From Bacillaceae bacterium (GTDB lineage Bacteria > Bacillota > Bacilli > JACDOE01): a DNA stretch of 64,000 nucleotides. A program made the translations under genes and the position numbers. How positions within the stretch are numbered: the stretch's first letter is position 1; each line of letters begins with the position of its first letter. Positions 5,812 to 26,098 of the stretch are shown here, piece after piece. Below the pieces are notes generated by a model. It saw only the letters and a program-made list of their open reading frames with translations, did not search any database and was not told where the DNA came from. Where the stretch lies: positions 4,033 through 68,032 of the forward strand of contig JACDOE010000002.1 in NCBI GenBank assembly GCA_017656255.1. The letters are read 5' to 3'.

Positions 5812-5820
5812 GAAGGAACG

Positions 5821-6085: not shown

Positions 6086-6426
6086 CGACCGGAGGGGCTT
6101 TTCACCCTGAAGACAACCCTGGAATTCCATCCGATATATCACCGTCTCGAAGCCCGGATCCGTTCCCAAATTTTGCTGAGTTTGTTAGTATCATTACTTC
6201 TGGTAAGCATGGTCGAAGTGAAACGGGTGGGACCTGGAATAAGTTGAGTCACCTCCACGGTTCCTAGAAATCCATCCGGAAGCATAGACACGCCCACACG
6301 CCCTATTTCTATCTGAATACCTGTAAACCCAAGTATGACATGGATTTACAGGAATTTTATTTGCGTAGACGAACTCAGGTCTTTTTGGGGTTCTTTAAGG
6401 CTATCATCATAAACTTGAAAGAATAT

Positions 6427-9414: not shown

Positions 9415-9429
9415 GACTCCATCTCCTCC

Positions 9430-11325
9430 TTAAATGACGCGGATATCTTCGACGCCATAACGTTTTAAAATTTGTTGTGCATTAATTCGAACGGTATCAT
9501 CTTTAAACCCTTCATCATAAAATACAACTCGTGCAGGTTTTTTCTGCGCAATTTCTTCAATATGTTCAAGCGTTAAATCTCTTTCTAAACAAATGAGTAA
9601 ATATCCCATACCCACTGAATAAACAACTTTATCAGCTACTTTTGTTTCTTCAATTGGAACTGTTAAATCAACACCATACTTGAGTAAAATTTCATACACA
9701 ACATCTTCTTGTGTACGCCCTTCTTTCACCGGATCAATTAAATCTAGTAAATTTCTTTCTACATCTGCTGTATTCTCATCCCAAACCTTTAAATTTGTAT
9801 CATCAAGCTTGAATACCTTAAACCCGATATCAAGATTCTCAATTCCTTCCTTGTCTTTATTCTCTTCCAATATCTTCTGACCCGCACGGCGAATACGTTC
9901 TTTTCCGATTTCACATATATTTTTAAAGCCTGCTTTAAATGCTTCTTTTTGATCATTTATTGGTTCATCTAATTGAATAAGGATAAACTTCCTTTTTCCA
10001 TTATCTTCGCTATTTAAATCAAAAACAGCATGAGCCGTAGTACTTGATCCTGCAAAAAAATCAAGTACTGTATCATGCTCTCCAAGTCCTAGCATCAATG
10101 ACTTCTTAATTAATTCCACAGGCTTTGGATGGTCAAAATACGAGGAACTAAAAAGCTCTCTAAAGACTATTGTTCCACGTTCTGTCCTAACATCCGCTTC
10201 ATCCCATATAGTCTTAGCTTTTGTAAGTGTTTTTCTATTTTTCTCATAAATATTCCATCCACCATTACGCTTTTCCTTAGCAATAACATTACTGTTTTCC
10301 GGATCATTTTCAATAATGTTTTCCGATAATAAATTTACCCCCCATCTCCAACAACTATCTTTCCCTTGACTATTTAATGGAAATACCTCTATATATTTAT
10401 CATTTTCTTTTACTAGATTTACAGGTGAAAATCCGTTCTTGTCTTTTATGTCAGGGTTAACATAAATTGGATAATAAAGATTTGGCCTGTTATTTTTGTT
10501 AAATTTCGGATTACGATTTCTTAATTCTCTTAATTCAAATCTTCCTTTATTGTCTTCATATTTAAATGATGACGTATCGGCCTTTGGAAGTAAGTTCAGA
10601 GTAGATTCATTGCTTTTAAAATAACATATCAAATATTCATGTGTTTTAGCTAAGTCTAAATAGTCTTGACCACCTTTATTCGTTTGTACAATGATTTGCC
10701 CTACAAAGTTGTGTTCACCAAAAATCTCATCACATATCTTCCGCAAATTATGAACTTCATTGTCATCAATACTTATAAATATTACACCATTATGTGTTAA
10801 CAAATTTTTCGCTAACTTTAAACGAGGATACATCATATTAAGCCAATCAGTATGATACCTACCATTTGTTTCTGGGTTTGATTTCATGCTTTCTTCATTC
10901 TTTTCTTTATAGTTTTTAATATTATCATGGAAGTCATCTTTATAAACGAAATCATTCCCTGTGTTATATGGTGGGTCAATGTAAATCATTTTTATTTTGT
11001 TACGATAGGAGTTCTGAAGAACGCGGAGTACTTCTAGGTTGTCTCCTTCAATATACAGGTTTTTTGTTGTATCCCAATTCACACTTTCCTCTTTACATGG
11101 TCGAAGTGTGCCTGTGGTTTGTTTTTGCGCAAGTTGAATGGCCTTTGTTTTTCCATTCCAAGTAAATTCATAGCGCTCTTTTTCTTTTTCAAGGTGTTCG
11201 CCAAGTGTCAGCAAGAGCTTTTCAACGTCAATTTTGTTTTCTGTAAATACTTCAGGGAAAAGTTGTTTTAGTTTTTCAATGTTGTCTTGTACAACGTTAA
11301 ATGTCTTTCCATCTAATTTTTGCAT
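9430..11325 (-). CDS. mod: Type III restriction-modification Mod subunit (N6-adenine DNA methyltransferase)
   Basis: 631 aa. Motif IV DPPYN and SAM motif FFAGSSTT. Size and mod-res order are typical of type III systems. Confidence 0.85.
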   Translation of the reverse strand: MQKLDGKTFNVVQDNIEKLKQLFPEVFTENKIDVEKLLLTLGEHLEKEKERYEFTWNGKTKAIQLAQKQTTGTLRPCKEESVNWDTTKNLYIEGDNLEVLRVLQNSYRNKIKMIYIDPPYNTGNDFVYKDDFHDNIKNYKEKNEESMKSNPETNGRYHTDWLNMMYPRLKLAKNLLTHNGVIFISIDDNEVHNLRKICDEIFGEHNFVGQIIVQTNKGGQDYLDLAKTHEYLICYFKSNESTLNLLPKADTSSFKYEDNKGRFELRELRNRNPKFNKNNRPNLYYPIYVNPDIKDKNGFSPVNLVKENDKYIEVFPLNSQGKDSCWRWGVNLLSENIIENDPENSNVIAKEKRNGGWNIYEKNRKTLTKAKTIWDEADVRTERGTIVFRELFSSSYFDHPKPVELIKKSLMLGLGEHDTVLDFFAGSSTTAHAVFDLNSEDNGKRKFILIQLDEPINDQKEAFKAGFKNICEIGKERIRRAGQKILEENKDKEGIENLDIGFKVFKLDDTNLKVWDENTADVERNLLDLIDPVKEGRTQEDVVYEILLKYGVDLTVPIEETKVADKVVYSVGMGYLLICLERDLTLEHIEEIAQKKPARVVFYDEGFKDDTVRINAQQILKRYGVEDIRVI

Positions 11326-12101
11326 CAGTCACACAACTCCTTTAATTCACTTAAAAGTGATTCAATGTTTGCTTGAATTTGTTTCATTTCTATATGAAGT
11401 TCCATCTTTATGCCAAAGTCTAACACATGATTTTGTTTTTGTTTTAATTCCTCTAACTGAGATTTTCTTACATTGACTTCTGATAACTTAGAAATGATTA
11501 AATCACGACTTTCATCTTGAGTTGGAAAGCACTCTATCCACTCAATGATTGGTGAACACTGCAACCAACGATTCAAGTCATCATAAAATTTGTAGAGATC
11601 AACAAACGATTGATTCGAGCACTTTAAGGCGTTTAGCAACTTTTCGTAGGAACTGTTATTGTTTTTTGGATGGAACCACCCAGTCAGTAATGGTTCATCC
11701 AACACAACTTTGGTAGGATCATTTTTATTCAACCGCTTATGACATGTGCTCAGCAACCACTCTTTTTCCTTTGACTCCATAATCAAAACAGCTGGATTTG
11801 GAATCGATTTATGAATCGCATGGATTATTCGATTAACATGTTGGTTCGTACGTAATTGTACATAAATCCAAACCACTTCAGCATATTGATGCACCTCTGA
11901 CTGATACGTAGAGATATTCATGCTTTGACGATTCATTACACTCAGTAAGTATATTCCTTCTATTTGAGAAGTAAATAGCTCTTTCTCCTTTTTCGATAAG
12001 TCACCTTGAGAAAAGAATGTTTTTTTCGGAACTTTTCGATTTAACACCGTTCTTTGCGGTATCTCAAACTGCTGGATAACCCATTCTCGCAACCTTCTCA
12101 C
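11325..12101 (-). CDS. DUF4391-like hypothetical protein of the helicase/type III module
   Basis: 258 aa with no catalytic motifs recognised. Its start/stop junctions are shared with the flanking genes (12102/12101 and 11325/11325). Size and context resemble DUF4391 proteins that accompany SNF2 helicases and DNA methyltransferases. The family assignment comes from memory of the architecture, not from an HMM. Confidence 0.45.
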   Translation of the reverse strand: MRRLREWVIQQFEIPQRTVLNRKVPKKTFFSQGDLSKKEKELFTSQIEGIYLLSVMNRQSMNISTYQSEVHQYAEVVWIYVQLRTNQHVNRIIHAIHKSIPNPAVLIMESKEKEWLLSTCHKRLNKNDPTKVVLDEPLLTGWFHPKNNNSSYEKLLNALKCSNQSFVDLYKFYDDLNRWLQCSPIIEWIECFPTQDESRDLIISKLSEVNVRKSQLEELKQKQNHVLDFGIKMELHIEMKQIQANIESLLSELKELCD

Positions 12102-15100
12102 CTACTTAATAATTAAAAATGAAATTAATTCAAAGTCTTCTGACGTTGTATTTGTATCTACTAATAAACTTGAGTCTCCTAAACTAAATAAAGATTCCAT
12201 TCCTTTTTCTTCGACAATTCCAAGAATAAATTCAACGACTGTATCTAATAATGACTTATAATCAGACATGTCCGCTAATTCATCCGTTTCTTTATGAAAT
12301 TGCAAGATTAATTCCGTAAACAATACATTTTGGCCCATGCAAACCTTTCGATAGAGGTCAAGGATTTGCTTCGTTTTGGAATGACCTAATAAAATATCAC
12401 CGTCATTACTCACATACACAAGATAATATGGATACAGAGCACTCAACTCTTTTATTTTGGCATTAGCGTTTCGTTGTTTGATACAAAAAATGACACCTGG
12501 TTTTGCTTCACCATTAGGAGTTAAATGTTTAGACGTGATTGAATACATACCTAGCGGAGCCGTTTCTAAATCAAGTTTATGTTTATTCATATAATCAACT
12601 AAATCCATCTTGAAGTCGTTCAATGTTAAGTCCGTGATCGAAATCCCGCCTGAAATATCCTCTAGATCAATTACTTCTTCTTGAAGTTGTTTCAGCTGCT
12701 TCGCACGATACTCTAGATCGTTCATTTTTTTCTTTTCATCATACTCGATTACATTCTCTTCTCCTGTTGCCGATATATCTAATAAAACCATACGACCACT
12801 TACACGAGCTTCTAAATTGATATACTCGTCTAAATCCATGTTTGGCCAGAAGTTCACAAGCTGAATCACATCATTTTTTGATCCGAGACGATCAATTCGA
12901 CCAAATCGTTGAATAATACGCACTGGATTCCAATGAATATCATAATTAATTAAATAATCACAGTCCTGTAAGTTTTGACCTTCAGAAATACAATCTGTTG
13001 CAATAAGTAGATCAATTTCTTCATTTGCCATTTCATCCACTTTATTTCGTTCTTTTGATACAGGGGAAAAATACGTTAAGATGGTATTTAAATCTTTTGG
13101 AATATTGCTTAAAGTTGTTTTATTTCCACCTGTACCGGTTACTAGAGCTGTGTGAATACCATATTCCTTTAGGATCCATTTGGACAGCTCATCGAATAAA
13201 TAGTTTGCTGTATCAGCAAAAGCCGTGAACACAATTATTTTTTTATTGTTTTGGTTTATTGGATTTGAAAGCTTATGATGAATCATAGACTTTAATTCTA
13301 AAAGTTTAGCATCCCGGTAAGGTCTGACTTTTGCCGATTCGACAAGAAGCTTCTCAAGTTTTTGTTTATCCTCTTCAAGGTCTTGACGCAATTTAATTTG
13401 ATCAATGTCTTGAAGCAGCACCTTGACTTTCGATCCAATTAGCATATCTTCCACATCATCGTCATCTATATTTATATCTGTAATATTAATCGACTGTTCA
13501 GTGAATTGATTAATATTTTCAAGCTTATTCAATAGATCATCAATTTTACCTAATAACGAGGCAATTGTCATGCCGAATGAGTGAATAGAGCTTTCCATTC
13601 GTTTTAAAAGATTAACACGCATTAAATGAACGAGACTACGTTCCCTGTCAATTTGTTTAAAAACAGATCCGCCTTTTACTTGGATATCGTATTTCTGACT
13701 ATATTCGGCCTGTTTCTCAGGCAAGACATATTTTAAAGGCGAATAGGCACTCAAATTCAATCGATTAATAATTTTATTTACTTCTCTAATTTCAGGAAAC
13801 TCTTTCTCTTCATCTATATCAGGATAAACATTAATTGGTTTTAATCTTTTTGGAAACTTCCCTATTTCTGACATGTTGTAGTATTTTTCAATATGTTTTC
13901 TAGACCTTGCGATAGTTATAGCATCCAACAATTTAAAATAATCAAAATTTAACATTTCTAATAATGTATCTGTTGTCCTTTTTTCTTCACCTAATTTTAA
14001 CCATTTATTAAAGTCTTGCTGTGCTTTTCTTAGTGTTAATTCAATACTATCAATTCCTGCTGAATTTAATGCATTATCTTTTCCTTCCGTAATAAAAGAC
14101 ACTTGATTTTTTAAATCATTCATTTTATTATTTACTGGTGTTGCTGAGAGCATTAAAACTTTTGTTTTTACTCCAGATCTAATTACTTGATTCATTAAAC
14201 GTGAATAACGGGTTTCTCGGTCTTTCCGCGCTTCATTATTTCGGAAATTATGTGATTCATCAATCACAACTAAGTCGTAGTTACTCCAATTTACAGTTGC
14301 TAAATTAATATCACCAGACATTCCACTATATCGACTAAGATCCGTATGATTTAACACATCGTAATTAAATCGATCTGCAGCTAAAACGTTTCGTTTGTCA
14401 TTTTGTGTATAGATTAGCCAATTTTCACGTAATTTTTTAGGACAAAGCACTAATACACGATCATTTCGAAGCTCGTAATATTTAATAACAGCAAGTGCTT
14501 CAAAAGTTTTTCCCAAACCAACACTATCAGCTATAATGCAGCCATTATATTTTTCAAGTTTATCAATGGCTCCTAAAACCCCATCTTTTTGAAATTTATA
14601 TAGTTTATTCCAAATGATCGTATCTTTAAAGCCTGTTTTAGATTTGACAATATCGTCTTCACTTAATTCTTCTAAAAAGTCTTTAAAGATATTATAAAGG
14701 GTCACATAATACAGAAACTCAGGTGTATTATCTTGATAAATTTTTTCGATCCGACTTAATACTTCTTGTTTAACATTTTCTACATGCTCATCATTGTTCC
14801 AGATTTGGTCGAACCATCTGAGATAATTCATTGTTTGGCCAGGTTCATTTATTAAAGAATTCATTTCATAATTAGTTGAATACGTATATCCTAATCCACT
14901 ACTCGTGAAATTTGAGGTGCCTTGAATGGCAATTGAATCATCACTCTTGTTTTGCACATGAATAAGGTTCCCGGGTGCCATTGGTAAATTTAACGATTTC
15001 ATTTGAACTTTTGAACGAATCCAGTCCGCACATTCACGTGCAATCTTAGCTTGATTGAGTTCGTTCCTAAATTTTACTTCTAAATCTATGCCTACCAAGC

Positions 15101-15347
15101 TATTCTCTCGTTTAAGCATTTCATGTTTGGCCATTTGATCAGGAATTTTCATATCACGTATAAAAGTTGGACTATTGAATAAAAATCGAACCTCTTCTAC
15201 TTTTAATAACTCTTTCTTAAGTGCTTCAAAAGCATATATTGTAAAATATGAAGACATAATCGATATTTTTGAACCCTTTTTTAGGAATTTCTTCAACTCG
15301 TCCCCAACATTACCATGCGTTTTATTATCTAGCATTTTTCCAACCAT
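12102..15347 (-). CDS. PLD-like nuclease domain fused to an SNF2-family (SF2) helicase
   Basis: 1081 aa. N-terminal phospholipase-D-like segment with H..K..DD..GTSNFT. SNF2 motif I DSVGLGKT, motif II DESHNFRN, and a helicase C domain. Head of a four-gene operon. Confidence 0.75.
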   Translation of the reverse strand: MVGKMLDNKTHGNVGDELKKFLKKGSKISIMSSYFTIYAFEALKKELLKVEEVRFLFNSPTFIRDMKIPDQMAKHEMLKRENSLVGIDLEVKFRNELNQAKIARECADWIRSKVQMKSLNLPMAPGNLIHVQNKSDDSIAIQGTSNFTSSGLGYTYSTNYEMNSLINEPGQTMNYLRWFDQIWNNDEHVENVKQEVLSRIEKIYQDNTPEFLYYVTLYNIFKDFLEELSEDDIVKSKTGFKDTIIWNKLYKFQKDGVLGAIDKLEKYNGCIIADSVGLGKTFEALAVIKYYELRNDRVLVLCPKKLRENWLIYTQNDKRNVLAADRFNYDVLNHTDLSRYSGMSGDINLATVNWSNYDLVVIDESHNFRNNEARKDRETRYSRLMNQVIRSGVKTKVLMLSATPVNNKMNDLKNQVSFITEGKDNALNSAGIDSIELTLRKAQQDFNKWLKLGEEKRTTDTLLEMLNFDYFKLLDAITIARSRKHIEKYYNMSEIGKFPKRLKPINVYPDIDEEKEFPEIREVNKIINRLNLSAYSPLKYVLPEKQAEYSQKYDIQVKGGSVFKQIDRERSLVHLMRVNLLKRMESSIHSFGMTIASLLGKIDDLLNKLENINQFTEQSINITDINIDDDDVEDMLIGSKVKVLLQDIDQIKLRQDLEEDKQKLEKLLVESAKVRPYRDAKLLELKSMIHHKLSNPINQNNKKIIVFTAFADTANYLFDELSKWILKEYGIHTALVTGTGGNKTTLSNIPKDLNTILTYFSPVSKERNKVDEMANEEIDLLIATDCISEGQNLQDCDYLINYDIHWNPVRIIQRFGRIDRLGSKNDVIQLVNFWPNMDLDEYINLEARVSGRMVLLDISATGEENVIEYDEKKKMNDLEYRAKQLKQLQEEVIDLEDISGGISITDLTLNDFKMDLVDYMNKHKLDLETAPLGMYSITSKHLTPNGEAKPGVIFCIKQRNANAKIKELSALYPYYLVYVSNDGDILLGHSKTKQILDLYRKVCMGQNVLFTELILQFHKETDELADMSDYKSLLDTVVEFILGIVEEKGMESLFSLGDSSLLVDTNTTSEDFELISFLIIK

Positions 15348-15457
15348 GCATATCCCCCTGTTTCTTTATGTATTATTTTTTAGGGATTGATTTATAATAA
15401 CAATTTTATTTTATAGTTACATTTTACCATTATCTTTGTACATTATTGCAATAAGTT

Positions 15458-16840
15458 AAGTCCATATAATTGTGTAAAAAGAAAATCTATAAAAAAGGAG
15501 CCATTTTCAAATCCCTCGGTTAGAATGAAGTTGTGCACACTACATTCGAGAGGAGAGATTTGAAATGGCTCAATACAAGATTAACGTAGATTCAGAGATT
15601 TTGCATCAACTTTTTCTGGGGAATTCTCAAGATTCAGGGGTAGCGGCTTTGTTGGAGTCCGTGTTAAATCAGGTCTTAGAGGCACAGGTTTCAGAACAAT
15701 TAGGGGCCGAACCCTATGAACGCACAGATGAACGCCAGGGTTATCGAAACGGTACATATCCTCGTCAACTGACGACGCGTGTCGGTAAGATCACCCTTCG
15801 AGTACCTCGTCTGAGAAACGGCAAGTTTTCTACCGAATTGTTTGCCCGTTACCAGAGAAGTGAACAAGCATTGGTTCTGGCTCTGATGGAAATGGTGGTC
15901 AATGGGGTTTCGACGCGAAAAGTGAGCCAGATTACAGAAGAATTGTGCGGTGAGGAGTTTTCCAAGTCGACAGTTTCTGAGCTGTGCAAAAAACTGGATC
16001 CGATTGTACAAGCCTGGAATAACCGAAACCTTCGAGATCGAAATTATCCGTTTGTCATTGTGGATGCAATGGTGATTAAAGTGCGTGAAGAGGGGCGGGT
16101 TCGATCCCGTGGTGTCCTGATAGGATACGGGATTAATGACGAAGGGCATCGGGAAGTATTAGGCATGATGCTTGGAGACAGCGAATCTGAAGCGAGCTGG
16201 AATGACTTTTTCTCCTGGTTGAAATCCCGCGATTTACGCGGTGTGGATCTCATTGTTTCTGACCACCACAGCGGACTGGTCAAAGCGATCCGAAATCACT
16301 TTCAGGGGGTAACGTGGCAGCGTTGCCAGACTCACTTTATGAGAAACATTCTGGATGCCACCCCAAAGGCTTTAAAAGAAGAAATCCATACGCGGGTCAG
16401 AGCCGTGTTTGATGCACCCGATATGAAGACAGCCAGGCTGTTACTTGAAGATGTGTTGGCAGAATATGAAGAGAAAGCTTCAAAGGCGATGAATATCCTG
16501 GAGACCGGTTTTGATGATGCGACAGCCGTCCTCGTTTTACCAAAGAAATACCGCAAACGTCTCCGGACAACAAATGGGATGGAGAGGCTGAATGAAGAGA
16601 TCCGACGCAGAGAACGGGTCATTCGCATCTTTCCTAATAGAGAGTCGGCCATGAGACTCATTGGAGCTTTGCTCATGGAACAGGATGAGAAATGGTCCAG
16701 TGGCCGAAAGTATTTGGACATGACGGAATACCACTTATGGCTTCCATCTCAAAAACAAGATAAACAGGTTCAAAAGGTTACTCAACTTCGAACTTCATCT
16801 TCTAACAGGGGGATTCATTTTTACACATAATTTTGGACTT
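15458..16840 (+). mobile_element. IS256-family insertion sequence (about 1.38 kb)
   Basis: Imperfect terminal inverted repeats AAGTCCATATAATTGTGTAAAAAG (left) and revcomp of TTCATTTTTACACATAATTTTGGACTT (right). Contains a single Mutator-like transposase gene. Confidence 0.75.
15565..16830 (+). CDS. IS256-family transposase
   Basis: 421 aa. Hallmark NGVSTRKV motif and DDE region typical of IS256/Mutator-like transposases. Confidence 0.85.
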   Translation: MAQYKINVDSEILHQLFLGNSQDSGVAALLESVLNQVLEAQVSEQLGAEPYERTDERQGYRNGTYPRQLTTRVGKITLRVPRLRNGKFSTELFARYQRSEQALVLALMEMVVNGVSTRKVSQITEELCGEEFSKSTVSELCKKLDPIVQAWNNRNLRDRNYPFVIVDAMVIKVREEGRVRSRGVLIGYGINDEGHREVLGMMLGDSESEASWNDFFSWLKSRDLRGVDLIVSDHHSGLVKAIRNHFQGVTWQRCQTHFMRNILDATPKALKEEIHTRVRAVFDAPDMKTARLLLEDVLAEYEEKASKAMNILETGFDDATAVLVLPKKYRKRLRTTNGMERLNEEIRRRERVIRIFPNRESAMRLIGALLMEQDEKWSSGRKYLDMTEYHLWLPSQKQDKQVQKVTQLRTSSSNRGIHFYT

Positions 16841-16979
16841 AATCGACATTTCCCCTTTGTAGTTATAGCCAGAGTAAATGGTAAATAACAAAGAGAGATT
16901 TATATTATTATAAAAGAAAAAGGAAATTGAGAATAAATATAGAAGTTAGAAGTAAATTTTAATCATTTGTTTAGATCAG

Positions 16980-17549
16980 ATGTTTAGGATGTGTATATCT
17001 ATGACTGGAATAATATTTGTAGGAGGAATTCATGGAGTTGGTAAAACAACTTTATGCAAGCAAATATCTGAACAGTTTAAATTATTACATTATTCAGCGA
17101 GTGATTTAATATCACAAAGGAAAAAAGTCGATTTTAATAATGAGAAAAAAGTTAGGAATATAAATGAGAACCAAAATTTATTACTGGAGGCAATAAATTG
17201 TTTAGATACTCGAGATAATTGTTTATTATTAGATGGTCATTTTTGCTTAATAAACACATTTGGAGAAATTAGAAAAATTCCTATTGAGACATTTATTAAT
17301 TTATCACCTAGCGCAATAATCTGTTGTACTGAATCTCCTACAAAAATTTTTACTAGGTTAAAAGAGAGAGATAACATAAATTATGATATTAATTTTTTAG
17401 AAAGATACCAAAGAATCGAATTAGCATATTCACAAGAAATATCAGAGAAATTAAATGTACCTTATTTCGTTTACTCTCCGGTCGAAGAAATGAATAATTT
17501 TTATAAATTTTTAGAAAGAATAATTAAAGGAGGGGTAGAATGTGAGTGA
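16980..17549 (+). CDS. Small P-loop NTPase / nucleotide-kinase-like protein
   Basis: Walker A GGIHGVGKTT near the N-terminus, about 185 aa, kinase-like size. An alternative start at 17001 is possible. Very AT-rich. The next gene overlaps its 3' end. Confidence 0.55.
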   Translation: MFRMCISMTGIIFVGGIHGVGKTTLCKQISEQFKLLHYSASDLISQRKKVDFNNEKKVRNINENQNLLLEAINCLDTRDNCLLLDGHFCLINTFGEIRKIPIETFINLSPSAIICCTESPTKIFTRLKERDNINYDINFLERYQRIELAYSQEISEKLNVPYFVYSPVEEMNNFYKFLERIIKGGVECE

Positions 17550-18591
17550 TTATTTAGAAAGAAGAAAATTTAAGGATGTTGATTTAAACGATAATTTTTT
17601 TGATTCTCTAAAAGAAGATTATCACGAATTTGAAACTTGGTTTAGAAAAAAAGAAGAAGAGGAAGCGTTTTTACTATATGATAATGATAATAAAATTCAA
17701 GGATTTCTTTATTTTAAAATTGAGGAAGGTCCAATAAAAGATGTTGAACCAGACATTAATCAAAAAAAAGTATTGAAAATCGGAACTTTTAAAATTAACC
17801 CTCATGGTACTAGATTAGGTGAGCGTTTTATAAAGAAGGCTTTAGATTATGCCATTGTAGAGAATGTAGATGCGTGTTATGTTACTATTTTTGAAAGGCA
17901 TGATGTCTTAGTAAAGCTGTTTGAAAGGTATGGTTTTATTAGGTACGGCGTTAAAGATACATCCAACGGGATTGAACTAGTTTTAGTTAAAGATTTGCGT
18001 GAGTTAAAGAATGATATATTATTGGATTATCCTTTAATCAGTACAAAAAATTCAAGAAAATTCATCCTTTCAATTTACCCTAAGTACCATTCAAGGATGT
18101 TTCCGGATTCTATCTTAAAAACTGAAAAAGTCGATATTCTAGAAGATGTTTCATATACGAATAGTATACATAAGATATATGTTTGTAGAATGGCTGTCGA
18201 TCAAGCGAACCGTGGAGATATCTTTGTAATATATCGCACAAAAACTCCTGGACAAAGTGCCGAATATACATCTGTTGTAACATCAGTGTGTGTTGTAGAG
18301 GATATAAAGAGTCAAGATGAATTTAAAAACTTTGAAGAATTTTTTGAATATGCTAATGCTTATAGTATATTTAATCGTGATGATCTAAAAAAGTGGTATA
18401 ACAAAGGGGGATGTTTTATTATCAAAATGACTTACAATGCAGCTTTGAGTAAAAGATTAATTAGAAAAAAACTAATTGAAGAAATAGGTCTTGAACGTAA
18501 TAGCTATTGGGGATTTTTCGAAATATCAAATGAGCAATTTAATCGAATTCTAGAAGAAGGTGAAGTTAATGAAAGTATTATTATCGATTAA
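17542..18591 (+). CDS. GNAT-fold acetyltransferase-like protein with about 190-aa uncharacterised C-terminal domain
   Basis: GTG start with RBS AAAGGAGGGG. The N-terminal half carries the GNAT motif-A-like HGTRLGERF. The C-terminal half has no recognisable motif. Overlaps both neighbours (8 nt upstream, 23 nt downstream). Confidence 0.5.
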   Translation: MSDYLERRKFKDVDLNDNFFDSLKEDYHEFETWFRKKEEEEAFLLYDNDNKIQGFLYFKIEEGPIKDVEPDINQKKVLKIGTFKINPHGTRLGERFIKKALDYAIVENVDACYVTIFERHDVLVKLFERYGFIRYGVKDTSNGIELVLVKDLRELKNDILLDYPLISTKNSRKFILSIYPKYHSRMFPDSILKTEKVDILEDVSYTNSIHKIYVCRMAVDQANRGDIFVIYRTKTPGQSAEYTSVVTSVCVVEDIKSQDEFKNFEEFFEYANAYSIFNRDDLKKWYNKGGCFIIKMTYNAALSKRLIRKKLIEEIGLERNSYWGFFEISNEQFNRILEEGEVNESIIID

Positions 18592-18943
18592 ACCCGAATA
18601 TGTTGAACAAATTGAAAATGGAAACAAAAAATTCGAATATAGAAAAAGAATTTTTAAAAAAAATGTTGATTCGGTAGTGGTTTACTCAACAAAGCCGGTT
18701 GGGAAAATAGTTGGAGAAATTATAATAGAAGAAATTATAAATGATTCTCCAGAAGAAATTTGGAACAAGACAAATAAATATTCTGGAATCTCAGAAGAAA
18801 ACTTTAAAAATTACTTTTCTAATCGAAAGGAAGGGTTTGCTATAAAGATCAAGAAATTTCTTAAATATGATAAACCTTTAAATCCATTTGAAATTTTTAA
18901 TGATTTTGTACCTCCGCAGTCTTATAAATATATAGAAAGATAA
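18569..18943 (+). CDS. ASCH (PUA-like) domain protein
   Basis: MKVLLSIKPEYVEQIENGNKKFEYRK is the canonical ASCH N-terminal pattern. About 124 aa. Start is inside the 3' end of the upstream gene; the ORF-track start at 18560 is GTG. Confidence 0.65.
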   Translation: MKVLLSIKPEYVEQIENGNKKFEYRKRIFKKNVDSVVVYSTKPVGKIVGEIIIEEIINDSPEEIWNKTNKYSGISEENFKNYFSNRKEGFAIKIKKFLKYDKPLNPFEIFNDFVPPQSYKYIER

Positions 18944-18948
18944 ATAGG

Positions 18949-18972
18949 GTGACTACAAGTCACTTATTTTTT
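18949..18972 (+). terminator. Rho-independent terminator after the ASCH gene
   Basis: Stem GTGACT / AGTCAC with a 3-nt loop, followed by TTATTTTTT. Confidence 0.6.
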
Positions 18973-19008
18973 ATGTACAAGTAATCAAAGTAAAAAAGGT
19001 GATTCATT

Positions 19009-21366
19009 ATGATACGAACAGGCGTTAGGTGGCTAGAATCCGAAACTCGCAAAATATTTAATGCAACCAAAAAATCAGACGAATTATTGGCATATCTTGA
19101 TTCACTTTTATTTCATAAAAAAGTGGCTACTGGAAGTGCTGAATCATTTGAATCTGGTCGAAAGCAGGGCAGAATGACGTATTATAAAGAAAATAAAAGA
19201 TTCATTGTAGCCGCACCTAGAAAAAAAGGAGATTACATACATGTCGTCCTAACAATCCAAACTATCAGCAGAGCTGAAATGGAGGAACAGGGATTTAAAT
19301 TGGGAAACCAACATGATATTTATCTCTATAATAAAGAAGAAATAGAAAGGTTTGTCGATTTTTTAAATTTTAAACTAAACCGGGGACGACAATTAAAATT
19401 ATCATCACTGGTGTTGAAAGAATGGATTAAGAGATACATACAAGATGAAGATAGTCGTAAACGATATAAACAAGTTAATAAATCCAGATTTACAACACTT
19501 GAACATTTTAAAATTTATCTTGAACAGTTAAAATCCGGTGACCTGTCGCTATTAGAATTTAAAAAGAACATTGACCAGTTATTTAAAACAAAACATGAAA
19601 TAGCCGGCGAAAAAATCAACATATGGGGATTCAGCGGCTTTTCAGGTCAAATGTTTTTCAACCAAATCTGTAATCAGGTTGAACATGCCGGAATGATGGA
19701 TGAATTAACCAATGCTTTTCTTGAGGCAATTGAATTACCTGAACAAATCAACCATGATTTCAGCTGGGTCAAACATAAATTTCAAACCTTTATTGAAATC
19801 ATTAAAATATCGGCTAAAAAAGCCATTGAGAACGGGTTTCCCCCACAAAAATGTGCCAAAGTTAAATTTTCAACATTTTTCTTAAGTTTTTTCTGGGGGA
19901 TTCAGGATCTTTATCATATCCCGATTTATTATCGGTCTTCCAGAGATGCACTGGAGTATCTAGAGTATCCACTTAATCAAAACACTAAACATTTTGATGG
20001 AACCAATTACATATATTTTGCAGAACGTATGAACGAAGTTTCTGACGAAGTATCCACTTATTTGCCTGATGACAATACATTTAACATGTTAGAGCTGGAA
20101 CATTTTCTTCATTATGTAAAACAAAAAGTTGAGGAACAAAAGCAAAGTCAGGATGAAATTTACACTCTTTCAGATGATTTGTTTGCAGAGAGAATCAAGA
20201 ATACATTTATTGATATAGGAATCGTGATCGATGAGATGTCCAGCTCAATGGGTGAAGAGACGGATTTACCCGAGAGCCATCATGGCCAGGAGGTATGGCG
20301 GTTTTCGGGGAAGACAAACAAAGATGCCATGGTTTCTTATCTATTCTGCTGGGATAATCCGGATACGTATCTTTCCACCGTTTATGAAGAAGATGAAGAA
20401 GGTGCCTCCAAAAATATAGGGGAGATAGGCGGAGAAAATGAAGATGACTTCCTCCGCAATATGAAAAGATTTTTCATAGATCGTTTTAAGGAAAAAAAGC
20501 CCTATACACTTGAAGATGCGGTAGGGGAGACTTATATTGAAAAGAAATTGCTGGAAGAATGGCTGGAGCTTTTAAGTGAAAACAAGCAAATTATTTTTTA
20601 TGGTCCGCCCGGAACGGGTAAAACCCTTGTTGCCAAAAAACTGGCAAAAATACTGGCACAGCACGAAAACAGAACACGATTTATCCAATTTCACCCTTCT
20701 TACACCTATGAAGAATTTATAGAGGGACTGCGTCCTGAACTGGTTAAGACGGATCAGGGGACTTCCCAGTTATCCGTTAAAGTAAAACCCGGTATTTTTA
20801 AATCCTTATGTAAAGAAGCTTCAAAACCGGAAAATAAGTATGATTCCTATGTTTTAATTATCGATGAGATTAATCGCGCAAACACAGCTAAAGTATTTGG
20901 AGAATTGTTATATGCGCTGGAATACCGTGATACGCCGGTCCCTCTTCCTTACTCGAATGAAGATAAATTAATCGTTCCTTCAAATGTGTATCTGATTGGA
21001 ACCATGAATACGACTGACCGGTCCCTGGCCCATATAGATTTTGCTTTACGTCGCCGGTTTCAATTTATCCCCTTTTTTCCAGAGCAAACCGAACACGTCT
21101 TAAAATCATATCTGGATAAACATCAACCGGAAATGTCATGGGTCTTTGATCTTGTTAAATACGTTAATCAAAAAATAGAAGATCCCCATTATGCGATCGG
21201 ACACAGTTACTTTATGGGCCAGGAATTAACTGAAGAGAAGTTGGAACGAATATGGAAGTATCAGATTATACCTTATCTTGAAGAATGCTTTGTTCATCAG
21301 CCTGATAAAATAGAAGAATTTAAACTGGAAACGTTATTGGAAAATGGGGAGTTCAGGCATGACTAG
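19009..21366 (+). CDS. McrB-like AAA+ GTPase with long N-terminal putative DNA-recognition region
   Basis: The C-terminal 260 aa carry Walker A GPPGTGKT and the McrB signature IDEINRANTAKVFGELLYALEYR. The N-terminal 520 aa are unassigned. Confidence 0.75.
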   Translation: MIRTGVRWLESETRKIFNATKKSDELLAYLDSLLFHKKVATGSAESFESGRKQGRMTYYKENKRFIVAAPRKKGDYIHVVLTIQTISRAEMEEQGFKLGNQHDIYLYNKEEIERFVDFLNFKLNRGRQLKLSSLVLKEWIKRYIQDEDSRKRYKQVNKSRFTTLEHFKIYLEQLKSGDLSLLEFKKNIDQLFKTKHEIAGEKINIWGFSGFSGQMFFNQICNQVEHAGMMDELTNAFLEAIELPEQINHDFSWVKHKFQTFIEIIKISAKKAIENGFPPQKCAKVKFSTFFLSFFWGIQDLYHIPIYYRSSRDALEYLEYPLNQNTKHFDGTNYIYFAERMNEVSDEVSTYLPDDNTFNMLELEHFLHYVKQKVEEQKQSQDEIYTLSDDLFAERIKNTFIDIGIVIDEMSSSMGEETDLPESHHGQEVWRFSGKTNKDAMVSYLFCWDNPDTYLSTVYEEDEEGASKNIGEIGGENEDDFLRNMKRFFIDRFKEKKPYTLEDAVGETYIEKKLLEEWLELLSENKQIIFYGPPGTGKTLVAKKLAKILAQHENRTRFIQFHPSYTYEEFIEGLRPELVKTDQGTSQLSVKVKPGIFKSLCKEASKPENKYDSYVLIIDEINRANTAKVFGELLYALEYRDTPVPLPYSNEDKLIVPSNVYLIGTMNTTDRSLAHIDFALRRRFQFIPFFPEQTEHVLKSYLDKHQPEMSWVFDLVKYVNQKIEDPHYAIGHSYFMGQELTEEKLERIWKYQIIPYLEECFVHQPDKIEEFKLETLLENGEFRHD

Positions 21367-22579
21367 GCGACAGTGGTACCGGATCAAGGAATATCAAACA
21401 CGGCAAGGGGTTCAACTGTCTGAACAGAGTGTCCAGTTGTTACACAATCATTTTCGTCAAGTGGTCAAAGTAAGAAAAGCAGCGGATGGCTCCTGGGACA
21501 TAAAGGCCAATTCGATCGTGGGCCACATTAACTTACCAGACGCCATCATTCAAATTGAACCCAAAATCCCCATACAAACATTGTGGGAATGGATGGCGTG
21601 GGCGTATGATTTAAAGTCCCTGGAAATCTATCCATCCATGTCACCGTTCCAGCATCATGTTGGTGATCAAGAATGGCTGGTCAAAATCTTTTTATATGAA
21701 TGTGAAAAGATATATTCACAGGGGATTTACAAGGGATATGTGACGCGTGAAGAGGCCCTGGGGCATGTTCGGGGTCAATTAAATGCTTATCCGACCTTTC
21801 GTTTATGGCTTCAAAATGACTATCAATTTCTGTGCACCTTTGACGAATTGACATATGGGGTGACGGAAAATGAAATTATTTTCGCTGGCTTGCAGGACAT
21901 GAGCTCTAAAACTTTTCAAGATCCTGAGGTAAAGTCCCGGATTCATAAATTGATCCATGTATTTGGCGCTGAATTTTCTACCACACCGAAAAGATCGCCG
22001 CAGGAATGGATCGACATGATTGATAGTATCAAGATAACCCGACTCAATCACCATTACACCCGGGCGTTCCGTTTGTTGCGTTTATACTGGGAGGCTGCTG
22101 GACTTTCTTTTCAAAAGGGGAACATACAATGTCACAGTTTTTTGCTGGATATGAATGAGCTTTTTGAGCGCTACATTGCCAAAAGGTTGCAACATGAATT
22201 AAGTCCCTATCATGTGAATGTCATAGCCCAAAAGCAGGACTGGCTGGCAGTCGGAGGGCGCATTAAAATTGTTCCTGATCTAATCATCAAAGATGCGTCA
22301 GGTGACGAGATTGTTCTGGATACAAAGTATATCGGAAAAACCGAAGAGAGCTCCATCAACAGTCATATCTTCCAGATGCTTGCCTATTTAACTGCTCGGC
22401 AATCTAAAAAAGGCATTCTTCTTTACGTTTTTGGACCTGAACGGGAGGACGTGATTAAAAATACCGATATGGTTATATATCAATGGGGATTTATGGATAA
22501 TGAATTCAAGGAAGATGGCAAAGCGTTGACGGATAAGATTATGGGTCTGTTTAATAAACATTTATCTCATTCTAGTTAA
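21359..22579 (+). CDS. McrC-like PD-(D/E)xK nuclease subunit
   Basis: C-terminal VPDLIIKD...EIVLDTKY (PD...D/ExK). Overlaps the McrB-like gene. RBS GGGGAG lies upstream of the ATG at 21359; the ORF track begins at 21344. Confidence 0.7.
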   Translation: MTRRQWYRIKEYQTRQGVQLSEQSVQLLHNHFRQVVKVRKAADGSWDIKANSIVGHINLPDAIIQIEPKIPIQTLWEWMAWAYDLKSLEIYPSMSPFQHHVGDQEWLVKIFLYECEKIYSQGIYKGYVTREEALGHVRGQLNAYPTFRLWLQNDYQFLCTFDELTYGVTENEIIFAGLQDMSSKTFQDPEVKSRIHKLIHVFGAEFSTTPKRSPQEWIDMIDSIKITRLNHHYTRAFRLLRLYWEAAGLSFQKGNIQCHSFLLDMNELFERYIAKRLQHELSPYHVNVIAQKQDWLAVGGRIKIVPDLIIKDASGDEIVLDTKYIGKTEESSINSHIFQMLAYLTARQSKKGILLYVFGPEREDVIKNTDMVIYQWGFMDNEFKEDGKALTDKIMGLFNKHLSHSS

Positions 22580-22592
22580 GGAGGGGAAAAGA

Positions 22593-22829
22593 TTGTCCAC
22601 ACAAAGTGATGCCATTATAAAAGCTTTTGAAGAATTAGGAGGTACCAGGAGCATTAGAGAAATAGAGGATTGGGTTAACAGAAAGTATGGAGCCAAATGG
22701 AAGGATTTTAGTACGTTGATGGCTGATATGGTACCTGTGTCTCATGGTGGCAATACTTCTTCAACTGTACCCGAAGAAAAACGGGTTTTAGAAAGGGTTT
22801 CACGGGGCTATTATCGTTTGATAAAATGA
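22593..22829 (+). CDS. Stand-alone winged-helix protein (Mrr_N / HARE-HTH-like)
   Basis: 78 aa with a TTG start after RBS AAGGAGGGG. Pattern SIREIEDWV...RVSRGYYRL resembles the N-terminal wHTH of Mrr-type restriction enzymes. Confidence 0.45.
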   Translation: MSTQSDAIIKAFEELGGTRSIREIEDWVNRKYGAKWKDFSTLMADMVPVSHGGNTSSTVPEEKRVLERVSRGYYRLIK

Positions 22830-23341
22830 TTCACAAATTCGAATTAACATTTTCAAAAAATATATTAATTTCTCTTAATATATTCACAAATATGAAGCAC
22901 AATACTACCAATTGAGTTTGGTGATCTAGTTTCTTTCCACCATAAATTTTCAGTACTTAATGATTGAATGCATTTAACAACTTGGAGAGGTAATGATTGT
23001 ACATCCTGGCTTTTGAAATTTTAATAAATAGTTTCAAAGTTTCATTTGCCATTGACTCATTCCCCTATTTAACCAAGTTCTAATTTATTATTATATAGAA
23101 TAATTTGAGTTGCAGCTACTAACCACGCGTGCCTCCAAATCCTACAGGTATTTTTGCCATCAATCGCATCCATGCAACAAATATTAGAGATAACCTTTTT
23201 GATTTAAACTATTCATTATTGCAGAATCTTCATGGTATACTAATGTTACATATCCAACTGTATAAAGTCTTCTAACACGGCAACACTAATCCTAAAAACT
23301 TTTTAGGAGGTGAGGTCGTGGATAAAAAGGAGGGGAACGAT

Positions 23342-23494
23342 ATGCTCACTCCGGTTAAGCCTATTAACAAAGCCAAAAAAACAGGACTAACAAAGGATAA
23401 GAAGGAGCTTATGAAGAAATATCAGGGGTCTGCTTCTGCTCCGGTAGATTTGAATAAAATACGCCAGTGGTCAAAGAAGAATGAATCTCATTAA
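23342..23494 (+). CDS. Lys-rich 50-aa micro-ORF overlapping the PIN gene start
   Basis: Strong RBS AAAAGGAGGGG lies 6 nt upstream of the ATG. Product MLTPVKPINKAKKTGLTKDKKELMKKYQGSASAPVDLNKIRQWSKKNESH. Not in the ORF track because it is below the size cut-off. Confidence 0.3.
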   Translation: MLTPVKPINKAKKTGLTKDKKELMKKYQGSASAPVDLNKIRQWSKKNESH

Positions 23495-24041
23495 TTTCTC
23501 AGATAATTTCACAGGTTTTCATGAAGGCGAGGATATTTTAGTTGATACTGGAATATTACTTGCCTATTTTAATGAGTATGATGCGTATTATTCCACTGTT
23601 AAGGACCTGTTTGATAATCACATTTATGGAACCGATAGAACCCTGTTCCTTTATGTAAATCCAACTATCGTCAACGAGATTACCCATTTAGCCCAGGATC
23701 CTGTAAAAAGATATTTAAACGCATATCCTTCAGAACGGGATAAGTTTGATATGATTACCTTAATTAATTTGCAAAATAAGATAGCAAACGGAGTAAAGAA
23801 TTTAATTGAAAATGAAATCCTGTATGTGCTGGATGGAAACGAAGAAAGCGTGAAAAAACAGATTGAACTATACAAGACTTTAGGGTCTGCTGATGCTGTG
23901 AATGCATCTGTTGCTAATCTTTATGGGACAAGCTTCTTAACGGTAGATGCAAAACTGGCTTACAATCTAAAAAGCGTTGAAAATCAACTTCCTTACATCC
24001 AAAATGTATACTATACAACTTCTAGATACCGTGATTTCTAA
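23481..24041 (+). CDS. PIN-domain (VapC-like) protein
   Basis: Acidic residues sit in the positions expected of a PIN domain: ILVDTG near the N-terminus and LTVD near the C-terminus. 186 aa. Confidence 0.45.
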   Translation: MNLINFSDNFTGFHEGEDILVDTGILLAYFNEYDAYYSTVKDLFDNHIYGTDRTLFLYVNPTIVNEITHLAQDPVKRYLNAYPSERDKFDMITLINLQNKIANGVKNLIENEILYVLDGNEESVKKQIELYKTLGSADAVNASVANLYGTSFLTVDAKLAYNLKSVENQLPYIQNVYYTTSRYRDF

Positions 24042-24149
24042 AAGAAGTAGGAAAACCAAAAAAATAACGAACGAAGTGTTCCAGAAGGAACAGTCCCAAC
24101 TTCGTCAGGTTGAACAATCAGTTATACCTTTATTTAAATAACCTCGCCG

Positions 24150-24593
24150 TTATTTGAACAATTTTTCGTTAAACCATACTGTCAAAAGTGTAATAAATAC
24201 ACTAATAAACCCGGCATACACGTAAGCAGGAGTAAAAAAGATAAATATATCTTGAACGACATCATACGCCTTGGTTTGCAGTTCTGGAAATTCATAACTA
24301 CCGATTTCCCTAGAGCCTAACCAAAGAAGCAATATCCTTTCAAGAATCATTGGAATCAGAGATACCATAAAGGCAAATTTATATGGTTGACTGATCTGGC
24401 CATTCTTTTTAAAACTTATTGTTATGAACCCTAAAATAATATAAGGTATGACAATGAGCAATGTCCCAATGACTATTTCAACGTGGCCAAAATAAATTCT
24501 GGTGCCGAATCCAATACCGCTGATTATTCCATAGACTAACAAATACATAACCCAGCTTACAATAAAATATCCAGCCTTCTTTAGCATTTTCAA
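24150..24593 (-). CDS. Hypothetical integral membrane protein
   Basis: 147 aa with four predicted hydrophobic helices. Last gene of the AT-rich island. Confidence 0.5.
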   Translation of the reverse strand: MKMLKKAGYFIVSWVMYLLVYGIISGIGFGTRIYFGHVEIVIGTLLIVIPYIILGFITISFKKNGQISQPYKFAFMVSLIPMILERILLLWLGSREIGSYEFPELQTKAYDVVQDIFIFFTPAYVYAGFISVFITLLTVWFNEKLFK

Positions 24594-24907
24594 TCCCCCT
24601 TTGCAGGAATAAGAATAAGGGAGAAGCCACCTTATTCGTTTAGTTATGAGATCACTTTCTGTCTATAGTAACGTTTATAATTTCCATAACGTTTCTATGA
24701 GTTAGCAAAATTAATCCCCGATTGTAGTGTAGGTTACGGTTGAGCAATACAGCACAATCCAATCATGAAACAGCAAAGTTATTTCAAAATCACAAAATAA
24801 ATCTTGTTAACCCCCAAAAATTCCCCTATAATAAACCCAACAAAACTTTTCTTAACACTTAAGAAAATTATTGAAAAATCCAAACTAAAACCACAGGGAG
24901 AACCAAC

Positions 24908-26098
24908 ATGCTAACCGGAAACTACGAAATCATCAAATCCGTCAACATATCCCTCGTCCTTGACGCCCTGCGACACCACGAACAACTCTCACGATCCGAC
25001 ATCGCCAGACTGACCGGCCTCACCACCGGCACCATCACCAACATCGTCCACAAACTCATCGATCATGGCCTCGTCGAAGAAACCGGATCCAGCACCTCAT
25101 CCACCGGCGGAAGAAAACCCATCTTGCTCCGCCTTGCTGCCCGGGGCGCCTATGCCATCGGCATCGAAGTCACCACCACCGGCATCAAAGGCATGCTGGT
25201 CAACTTCCTGGCAGAACCCATACATACGCTTGAAAAACCGGGTGTCTTCCGCTACCAGCAGGGCCTATACTCCATCGCAGACCTCATCAAAGAACTGCAG
25301 CAACATCTGCCGGACGAACAGGACAAATTGCTCGGCGTCGGCATCAGCCTGCCGGGATGGGTCCATTTTGCCACCGGGAAAGTTCAGAATCTTCCCAACT
25401 TGCCGGGCTGGGAAAACGTCAACCTCAAGGATGATCTGGAGCAGGAGATCCGCCTCCCGGTGTTTATCGACAACGACGCCAATCTGGGCGCACTGGGCGA
25501 ATTATGGTTTGGCAAAGGCAGGATGTATCAACAGCTCATCTATATCCTGGTTGAAGACGGAATCGGCTCCGGTTTTGTGTTCAATCATCAGGTCTATCAC
25601 GGCAGGGGGTACACGGTCGGTGAACTGGGGCATATCCCCTTCGGCGGGAGTGATCAGCCCTGCTCCTGTGGCAACAGGGGATGCCTTGATGTCACCGCCT
25701 CAAACCGGGCCATGCTGAGAAACTATGCCACCCGGACGGGGGAAAACATCACCATCGAAGCATTGAACAGCCGTTTTCAACAGGGAGAGGAAGCCGCCCG
25801 TGCCGTCATGGAGGAATGCGCCGACAGGCTGGGCAGGGGCTGTGGAGCTCTGATCAACCTGTATGGACCCGAAGCGATCATCATCGGGGGAACCGTCGTC
25901 CATCAAAATCCCCATTTTCTGGATCTGGTCAAAGAGGCGACGCTCAAGTACGCCCTCCCCGTCATGTCCCGGGAGGTCCTGCTGACCGGGTCTCAATTAA
26001 AAGAACGCAGCGGTCTCTACGGCTGTGTCGCCCTCGTTTTTCAATCGACCCTGCAGCCCTATTCCCTGCAGTCGGTAGGCGGAACGCAATCAGGATAA
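24908..26098 (+). CDS. ROK-family transcriptional repressor (NagC/XylR-like)
   Basis: N-terminal wHTH (LSRSDIARLTGLTTGTITNIV), ROK sugar-kinase-like fold, and Zn motif CSCGNRGCLD. Confidence 0.8.
   Translation: MLTGNYEIIKSVNISLVLDALRHHEQLSRSDIARLTGLTTGTITNIVHKLIDHGLVEETGSSTSSTGGRKPILLRLAARGAYAIGIEVTTTGIKGMLVNFLAEPIHTLEKPGVFRYQQGLYSIADLIKELQQHLPDEQDKLLGVGISLPGWVHFATGKVQNLPNLPGWENVNLKDDLEQEIRLPVFIDNDANLGALGELWFGKGRMYQQLIYILVEDGIGSGFVFNHQVYHGRGYTVGELGHIPFGGSDQPCSCGNRGCLDVTASNRAMLRNYATRTGENITIEALNSRFQQGEEAARAVMEECADRLGRGCGALINLYGPEAIIIGGTVVHQNPHFLDLVKEATLKYALPVMSREVLLTGSQLKERSGLYGCVALVFQSTLQPYSLQSVGGTQSG

Follow-up and report, generated by a model that had tools for sequence, protein, structure and literature searches.

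A GNAT-EVE/ASCH cassette with an overlapping kinase-like gene as a candidate toxin-antitoxin or abortive-infection module in a Bacillaceae genome

Introduction

What is the function of three overlapping genes that encode a kinase-like P-loop protein, a GNAT-fold protein and an ASCH protein, and does this combination belong to a known system? The question is raised by a locus of a Bacillaceae bacterium (assembly GCA_017656255.1, contig JACDOE010000002.1, positions 4,033 to 68,032 of the forward strand), a stretch of 64,000 nucleotides that we refer to as the window. In the order of transcription, we call the members of the trio gene 1 (kinase-like), gene 2 (GNAT) and gene 3 (ASCH). A preliminary description of the window proposed a self-contained modification or toxin-immunity module that would acetylate, deacetylate and phosphorylate, and stated that the trio matches no named system. 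This last statement has to be withdrawn. Judged by sequence comparison, the trio is almost certainly a member of a candidate cassette that is already catalogued as PDC-M11 or GevTA, not an unmatched new system. The cassette is a candidate phage-defense or toxin-antitoxin (TA) system and is still poorly understood. We favor the view that the trio represents the three-gene form of a GNAT-EVE/ASCH cassette that acts as a TA or abortive-infection module, and a role in conflict, defense or addiction in the broader sense is likely.

Relation to Catalogued Cassettes

Both core proteins match PDC-M11 of PADLOC-DB v2. Gene 2 matches model PDC-M11A over its full length (E-value 2.3e-147) and gene 3 matches PDC-M11B (1.2e-49). 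PDC-M11 is defined as a two-gene candidate whose models lack the kinase. Furthermore, the window protein lacks an N-terminal extension of ~150 aa that is found in some PDC-M11A models and presumably represents the PIN-GNAT-EVE form.

The closest named counterpart is the GevT/GevA pair of Escherichia phage PhiR47_2 (PV340567.1), which has the same two-gene core in the same order and with an overlapping junction. The window proteins are 47.7% (GNAT-PUA) and 48% (ASCH) identical to the phage proteins over the full length, and both pairs match the PADLOC sub-models PDLC04419 and PDLC04425. In the GenBank record of 2025, the depositors label the two phage proteins “GevT toxin” and “GevA antitoxin.” The phage pair, which has no kinase gene, is located in the lambdoid immunity region, directly 3′ of cI and 5′ of kil-gam-bet-exo, where lambda carries rexAB. 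In contrast, the window copy is chromosomal, belongs to a Bacillaceae metagenome-assembled genome (MAG) and is preceded by an overlapping AAA_17 gene.

Proteins in which an EVE domain is fused to a GNAT domain, often with an additional N-terminal PIN domain, were described mostly in gamma-proteobacteria, in Firmicutes and in Bacteroidetes, and their operons were considered probable TA systems in virus-host conflict (Bell et al., 2020; PMC7641849). According to the same paper, Iyer et al. (2013) were the first to describe these operons and proposed that DNA bases are acetylated. The published (PIN)-GNAT-EVE/ASCH/AAA_17 operons share with the window the exact gene set and the association with prophages and defense islands; they have been described computationally only, and the Pfam EVE model stays below its cutoff. 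The cassette is already known as a PADLOC candidate, from the computational descriptions of 2013 and 2020, and by the toxin/antitoxin name in the phage record. In our literature search, the term “PDC-M11” was found only as PADLOC output in one preprint, for an E. coli O157:H7 strain (2026 preprint), and “GNAT-EVE” only in Bell et al. (2020). The value of the window copy is that it points to a large, mobile family that extends across phyla and is biochemically uncharacterized in the literature we reached.

Domain Composition of the Three Proteins

The domains assigned in the preliminary description (kinase-like P-loop, GNAT and ASCH) are supported by profile matches for each gene. In gene 2, Pfam matches are confined to the N-terminal 130 residues and are weak (Acetyltransf_1, 3.6e-4, just past the cutoff). 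For the C-terminal domain, structure comparison retrieves EVE domains (1WMM, score 11.2; 2AR1, 11.0; 2GBS, 10.9), THYN1 bound to 5-methylcytosine DNA (10.3), the EVE-HNH enzyme VcaM4I (9.7), YTH readers of N6-methyladenosine (~8-9), N-terminal domains of McrB (9.0 and 7.3) and YqfB (7.2). Given these structural matches to EVE, YTH, McrB-N and YqfB, the C-terminal half, left unassigned in the preliminary description, is a PUA-like modified-base-reader domain. Sub-threshold Pfam EVE matches in 12 of 20 members of the gene 2 family (best 9.5e-4) agree with the published “GNAT-EVE” label, and a profile of the domain has zero matches to PDB sequences at E ≤ 10. In its fold, the domain also agrees with the solved structure of ZmASCH, a close relative of the ASCH partner. 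This likeness between the reader domain and the partner is one of structure and not of sequence, as hhalign gives a probability of 1.2% for the reader domain against the ASCH partner family.

Gene 3 matches the Pfam ASCH model (1.3e-5), and a phmmer search against the PDB finds ZmASCH (ZMO0922, 5GUQ) at 9e-12. ZmASCH in turn matches PDC-M11B at 1.5e-27. In an alignment of 59 sequences, residues K20, E23, and R25 of the octapeptide G18-x-K20-x-x-E23-x-R25 are invariant and G18 is nearly so. ZmASCH shares this GxKxxExR motif. Y39 and P116-Q117-S118 are conserved in the same alignment, and Y39 and S118 correspond to Tyr47 and Ser128 of ZmASCH. A second preprint distinguishes the ASCH classes GKER and GK[T/S]R (2026 preprint), and gene 3 belongs to the GKER class, i.e., to the ZmASCH type. 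Hence, gene 3 is not of the type of YqfB, which the preliminary description had cited: a YqfB-type N4-acetylcytidine (ac4C) amidohydrolase (GK[T/S]R, ~103 aa) is set aside by the GKER motif and by ZmASCH as closest solved structure. In the same preprint, each of the 19 ASCH proteins assayed, ZmASCH being one of them, removes ac4C in vitro from the tRNA of E. coli, and the Lys/Glu dyad of the octapeptide is essential in a GKER-type ASCH enzyme (2026 preprint).

In Zymomonas mobilis (locus L082, 3825-5447), the ZmASCH gene lies 49 nt 3′ of a gene for a 375-aa protein that has neither a Pfam nor a PADLOC match. We considered ZmASCH as the ASCH part of a cassette of this kind and rejected it, as the adjoining protein is unrelated and has no PDC-M11A match. 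A GevA-like ASCH protein may have a different partner in this 375-aa protein.

Gene 1 matches Pfam AAA_17 (1.8e-17) and AAA_18 (7e-10). When a profile of 32 family members is compared with the PDB, AK5, AK1, and UMP-CMP kinases are the best matches (~1e-7), spanning the P-loop and the segment that binds the nucleoside monophosphate (NMP). The family keeps the P-loop, an SxxLI segment, DGH and RxxxRD. Conserved positions are GxxGxGK, S34, K49, N57, DGH78-80, R119, R123-D124, Q137, and E140, all of which except K49 and N57 are invariant. Curated NCBIfam kinase models score at most 29 bits against cutoffs of 102-560, so by sequence gene 1 appears to have an NMP-kinase fold without being a housekeeping kinase or an orthodox Adk. 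PADLOC gives only a weak kinase match (VakA, 3.6e-5). In a Bacteroides (L050, 9420-10757) and a Prevotella (L060, 9353-10753) locus, the kinase domain forms the C-terminus of a protein of 446-467 aa, whose N-terminus comprises two predicted transmembrane helices and a putAbiC abortive-infection domain (PF16872, ~5e-20). This fusion, together with the optional presence of the kinase described below, suggests a regulatory or auxiliary effector role.

Co-conservation and Distribution

For the co-conservation of the three genes, we scanned one genome per species, obtained 160 relatives, and kept 80 loci. These come from Bacillota, Bacteroidota, Pseudomonadota, and several other lineages, including a Gastranaerophilales MAG, an Arcobacteraceae MAG, and deltaproteobacterial MAGs. 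Of the 80 loci, 78 have an ASCH homolog, which lies directly downstream on the same strand in 75. The two remaining loci are not assessable, because their contigs end 118 and 177 nt past the GNAT gene, and the pairing thus holds in 78 of 78 assessable loci. The preliminary description had named a lack of co-conservation as a point that would speak against a module; for GNAT and ASCH the opposite is found, and for the kinase the result is divided, since it occurs in 39 of 80 loci. The kinase gene is found in four arrangements relative to the GNAT gene: upstream on the same strand (28 loci), downstream on the same strand (6), upstream on the opposite strand (4), and downstream on the opposite strand (1). 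Its retention despite rearrangement argues for a functional linkage.

Reciprocal sampling outside this set (Priestia, Anabaena, a Nostocales MAG, Nitrospirota, Clostridium tyrobutyricum, and Bacillus) shows the same association from the side of the kinase. All six kinase homologs adjoin an ASCH gene of the GevA family, and five adjoin a canonical or divergent GNAT-PUA protein. The GNAT-ASCH pairing is obligate, and the kinase, given this reciprocal linkage, is a dedicated but dispensable accessory. When 1245 neighboring open reading frames (ORFs) of the 80 loci are clustered, only the GNAT, ASCH and kinase families recur, the next commonest being found in six loci. No McrB- or McrC-like cluster recurs among these neighbors. 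The adjacency to McrBC, which the preliminary description had noted, is thus incidental, and McrBC was dismissed as a functional partner.

The gene family comprises more than 2000 clusters. The GNAT protein is encoded in 16 phage records found by tblastn, among them lambdoid phages, SopEPhi, Lj965, and psiM100. The E. coli cassette is present at ≥99% identity in 275 of 5426 complete genomes (~5%), always on the chromosome, and carries in RefSeq only the labels “hypothetical protein” and “ASCH domain-containing protein.” In one locus (L070), the GNAT gene is fragmented and the ASCH and kinase genes are intact, a pattern that fits a toxin that is lost first.

The cassette is mobile and resides in prophage moron sites and defense islands. 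In C. tyrobutyricum it lies 3′ of Prophage_tail/Prophage_tailD1 genes and 5′ of a holin/amidase pair, and in a Bacillus locus it adjoins an integrase. PADLOC and Pfam scans of the 128 nearest large neighbors identified, alongside housekeeping genes, Septu PtuA, MADS, Gabija, DRT4, DRT6, CBASS E1-E2, PDC-M36A, and other PDC candidates, as well as integrases and TnsD. The prophage, integrase and defense-gene neighbors point to a mobile defense or addiction cassette. In 5-6 Lachnospiraceae loci (L030, L033, L044, L054, and L056), PARIS-like AriA (~453-471 aa) and AriB (312 aa) are encoded directly upstream of the kinase-GNAT-ASCH trio. This recurrence reflects either a defense pair that travels with the trio or a single shared mobile element.

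Two loci of the reciprocal sample deviate in their composition. In Priestia koreensis (L084, 4001-6750), the order is kinase, ASCH, a 377-aa protein and a stand-alone GNAT of 176 aa; GNAT and reader appear to be split here, or the reader appears to be replaced by another protein. The 377-aa protein was compared with the 375-aa neighbor of ZmASCH and is not related to it. In the C. tyrobutyricum prophage (L088), a second, weak ASCH ORF (2187-2537, 116 aa) without a PDC-M11B match lies just 5′ of the GNAT-PUA gene, so that this locus encodes three PUA-like domains.

Proposed Function and Alternative Explanations

All three proteins keep conserved residues of a catalytic type. In the mechanism that we propose, the PUA-like domain of the GNAT-PUA protein would recognize a substrate carried on nucleic acid, and the protein would transfer an acetyl group from acetyl-CoA to an amino group of this substrate. 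The likeliest target would be tRNA, modified either at the N4 position of cytosine or at the aminoacyl group, and translation or replication would come to a halt upon acetylation. The ASCH protein, translated from the same mRNA by coupling, would neutralize the toxin. Most plausibly it would hydrolyze the acetyl mark via its conserved Lys/Glu site, or alternatively it might occupy the same substrate. The kinase-like protein would, as an accessory dependent on ATP, tune the system or trigger it. We hold it to be fairly probable that the GNAT protein is the toxin and the ASCH protein the antidote, and we lean only slightly toward RNA rather than DNA as the target. Enzymatic deacetylation as the mode of the antidote is a tentative proposal. 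A pair of writer and eraser is nevertheless the most economical arrangement, because ASCH proteins remove ac4C from tRNA in vitro and the Lys/Glu dyad essential for GKER-type activity is invariant in gene 3. Three features sharpen this model, namely the ZmASCH fold of the C-terminal half of the putative toxin, the ac4C-linked Lys/Glu site kept by the ASCH protein, and the dedicated kinase, for which fusions to an AbiC-like membrane domain occur.

Two groups of TA systems offer an analogy. In DarTG, the gene for a toxin that modifies nucleic acid lies upstream of the gene for a mark-removing enzyme, and the logic proposed here for GNAT and ASCH would be similar to that of DarT and DarG. AtaT, TacT and ItaT are acetyl-CoA-dependent GNAT toxins of type II modules that poison translation, and a GNAT-PUA protein might follow this alternative logic. 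No sequence relationship of the cassette to either group was detected. Moreover, the putative antidote of the cassette has an ASCH fold and is neither a macrodomain nor a ribbon-helix-helix (RHH) repressor, and the putative toxin has a PUA-like targeting domain of its own. A module of the AtaT/TacT/ItaT/KacT type, with a stand-alone GNAT of ~170 aa and an RHH or helix-turn-helix (HTH) antitoxin, was rejected in view of the ASCH partner, the PUA fusion and PDB matches only to PaiA (1e-3) and one other GNAT.

A more specific version of the writer/eraser model is reversible base-acetylation immunity. The GNAT-PUA protein would write an N4-acetylcytosine-like mark on tRNA or on phage or host nucleic acid and thereby arrest growth, the ASCH protein would erase it, and the kinase would provide an ATP-dependent trigger or a second modification. 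We consider this version unlikely. If true, it would parallel DarTG with acetylation as the modification, and nucleobase acetylation would for the first time be seen to serve as an immune effector. Of the module suggested in the preliminary description, the part that stands is a mobile GNAT/ASCH/kinase unit that is a PDC-M11 candidate and has a phage counterpart labeled toxin and antitoxin, while the chemistry of acetylation, deacetylation and phosphorylation is still inferred.

Several observations weigh against a TA module in which GNAT is the toxin. The order of toxin before antitoxin is less common in classical type II TA modules. PDC-M11 is a candidate and not a validated defense system, and among the neighbors of the 80 loci there are also plain housekeeping and metabolic genes. 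Our literature search found no experimental paper on GevTA, the toxin and antitoxin labels being GenBank annotation only. The motif HGTRLGERF of gene 2 is a non-canonical acetyl-CoA loop. Compared with the PDB, the profile of the GNAT domain finds PaiA as the best match and one other GNAT; no close characterized relative emerges, and the domain is distant from every solved GNAT, including the toxins that acetylate aminoacyl-tRNA. For the ASCH protein, the difficulty is that the ZmASCH gene has no GNAT-EVE gene as a neighbor, so the biochemistry of ZmASCH transfers by homology only. ZmASCH is furthermore inactive on free ac4C and in vivo (2026 preprint), and it was earlier reported as a Mg-dependent ribonuclease of single-stranded RNA (ssRNA) to whose activity Tyr47 and Ser128 contribute.

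Because of these last two properties of ZmASCH, the ASCH protein may be the effector instead of the antidote. The roles would then be reversed: the ASCH protein would act as an ssRNA ribonuclease, the GNAT-PUA protein would be a sensor or regulator that, e.g., acetylates and silences ASCH or senses modified phage nucleic acid, and the kinase would modulate. The relationship of gene 3 to ZmASCH in both searches and the conservation of Tyr47 and Ser128 as Y39 and S118 are in keeping with this arrangement. Nevertheless, we judge it improbable. The depositors of PhiR47_2 named the components the other way round, ASCH never occurs without the GNAT gene in the sampled loci, and ZmASCH stands alone in its genome without harm. 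Were ASCH a toxin with nothing to check it, the L070 locus, in which a GNAT pseudogene accompanies an intact ASCH gene, would kill its host. A similarly low probability applies to epigenetic marking of DNA, in which the GNAT-EVE protein would acetylate a DNA base, the ASCH and EVE domains would read or edit it with assistance of the kinase, and self would be marked or invader DNA altered. This was the proposal of Iyer et al. (2013), as related by Bell et al. (2020; PMC7641849), and fusions of ASCH to HTH and to HsdS suggest DNA binding (PMC7641849). However, across the 80 loci no nuclease or restriction partner is co-conserved and the three genes alone recur, phages carry the cassette by itself at moron sites, and the same fold also reads RNA, as in YTH and ASCH.

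The occurrence of the GNAT protein in 16 phage records, together with the published speculation that GNAT-EVE protects phages against restriction-modification (R-M; PMC7641849), raises the possibility that it is a weapon of the phage itself, i.e., a counter-defense or host-takeover factor of temperate phages, of which the chromosomal copies are prophage remnants. The surroundings of the trio make this a still weaker candidate: there are no phage structural genes nearby in the window, where the neighbors are R-M, McrBC, SNF2 and an insertion sequence (IS) element, and the PhiR47_2 pair lies beside cI in a region expressed during lysogeny, which fits a prophage-encoded defense of the lysogen. 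Lastly, the trio might combine a writer and an eraser of tRNA ac4C with nucleotide salvage, or be an acetyltransferase/phosphotransferase pair for antibiotic resistance. Both the GNAT fold and the kinase fold are generic, ac4C in tRNA is deacetylated by ASCH proteins in vitro, and there are weak NCBIfam matches to PaiA and to adenylate kinases. Yet these matches score far under their cutoffs (e.g., 29 vs. 155 and 20 vs. 250), the kinase resembles NMP kinases and not APH, the distribution is patchy over several phyla, the GC content is 28% in a genome of 52%, and the cassette is found in prophages and defense islands. On NCBIfam scores and genomic context, we rejected the resistance and housekeeping readings, to which we assign only a very small probability.

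Locus Organization

The overlap, shared orientation and AT-richness of the three genes were correctly noted in the preliminary description. Genes 1 and 2 overlap by 8 nt (17542-17549) and genes 2 and 3 by 23 nt (18569-18591), and the GC content is 27.6-28.1% (region 17-19 kb). Each gene has hundreds to thousands of full-length homologs, which shows that the trio consists of real genes and not of chance ORFs. The coordinates are compiled in Table 1.

Table 1. Coordinates of the trio, of the domains of the GevT-like protein and of the terminator in the window.
Feature	Position	Strand	Remarks
Kinase-like P-loop gene (AAA_17)	17001..17549	+	182 aa from likely start; mechanical ORF from 16980
GevT-like/PDC-M11A GNAT-PUA gene	17542 (GTG)..18591	+	349 aa
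GNAT domain, GevT-like protein	17542-18006	+	~residues 1-155
PUA-like (EVE/ASCH-fold) reader domain, GevT-like protein	18034-18588	+	~residues 165-349
GevA-like/PDC-M11B ASCH gene	18569..18943	+	ORF listing begins at GTG 18560
Intrinsic-terminator-like hairpin and T-run	18947..18975	+	Ends operon before mcrB

The true start of the kinase-like gene is probably the ATG at 17001, since tblastn alignments with homologs begin at residues 8-11 of the long ORF and an AGGA lies ~10 nt 5′ of this codon. The GTG start of the GNAT gene is preceded by AAAGGAGGGG at a distance of 5 nt, and the N-terminus MSDY agrees with homologs. For gene 3, the ATG start (MKVLLSIKPEY) has an upstream AAGGTG and agrees with homologs and with GevA. 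Given the 23-nt overlap, the ASCH gene is probably translationally coupled to the GNAT gene. The terminator that had been proposed between the trio and mcrBC was recovered by a terminator scan, which found 2 sites against 0.7 expected in shuffled sequences. In its hairpin (18947-18965), 8 pairs enclose a loop of 3; the tail is ATTTTTTATG. With the T-run, the hairpin is the sole terminator-like site on the + strand of the region.

Genomic Setting

The trio lies in a low-GC island of ~19 kb (5811-25000) with 31-43% GC, compared with ~50-56% in the remaining window and ~52% in the genome. The island begins directly after the 3′ end of glmS (3904-5811), the classic insertion hotspot of Tn7-type elements; no Tns genes were seen inside the island. 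It carries at least five conflict modules. In order, these and the accompanying genes are a Type III res/mod pair, DUF4391 with an HKD/SNF2 helicase, an IS256-family element, the trio, McrBC, a DUF7669-like gene and a PIN-like pair. The trio has been acquired horizontally into this defense island.

Upstream of the trio, the minus strand (6427-15347) encodes Res (ResIII and RE_endonuc, 995 aa), an N6_N4 methylase (631 aa), a DUF4391 protein (2.6e-44) and a helicase with HKD and SNF2 domains, which corresponds to PADLOC C3a139 (4.9e-141). The cluster is tightly packed, with position 11325 shared by a start and a stop codon and with genes abutting at 12101/12102, and looks like a single composite R-M/helicase system. 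The IS256-family element (Transposase_mut, 7.7e-132) is bounded by terminal inverted repeats of 25 nt (15456-15480 and 16818-16842), and no clear target-site duplication was seen at it. Inserted ~160 nt upstream of the start of the kinase-like gene, the element may influence how the trio is transcribed.

Downstream, the McrBC neighbor noted in the preliminary description is supported by Pfam matches to both proteins. The McrB-like protein (19009-21366) is unusually long, with 785 aa, of which AAA_5 (1.6e-20) covers only ~505-690. Neither Pfam nor PADLOC gives a match for its N-terminal ~500 aa, which could be a DNA-reader domain of a novel kind. It is followed by McrC (PF10117, 1.3e-41) and by a small DUF7669-like ORF (22593-22829). 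At the edge of the island (23318-24041), an ORF of 58 aa overlaps by 14 nt an ORF of 186 aa with a weak PIN match (PF01850, 3.4e-4), a pair that is possibly a VapBC-like TA module.

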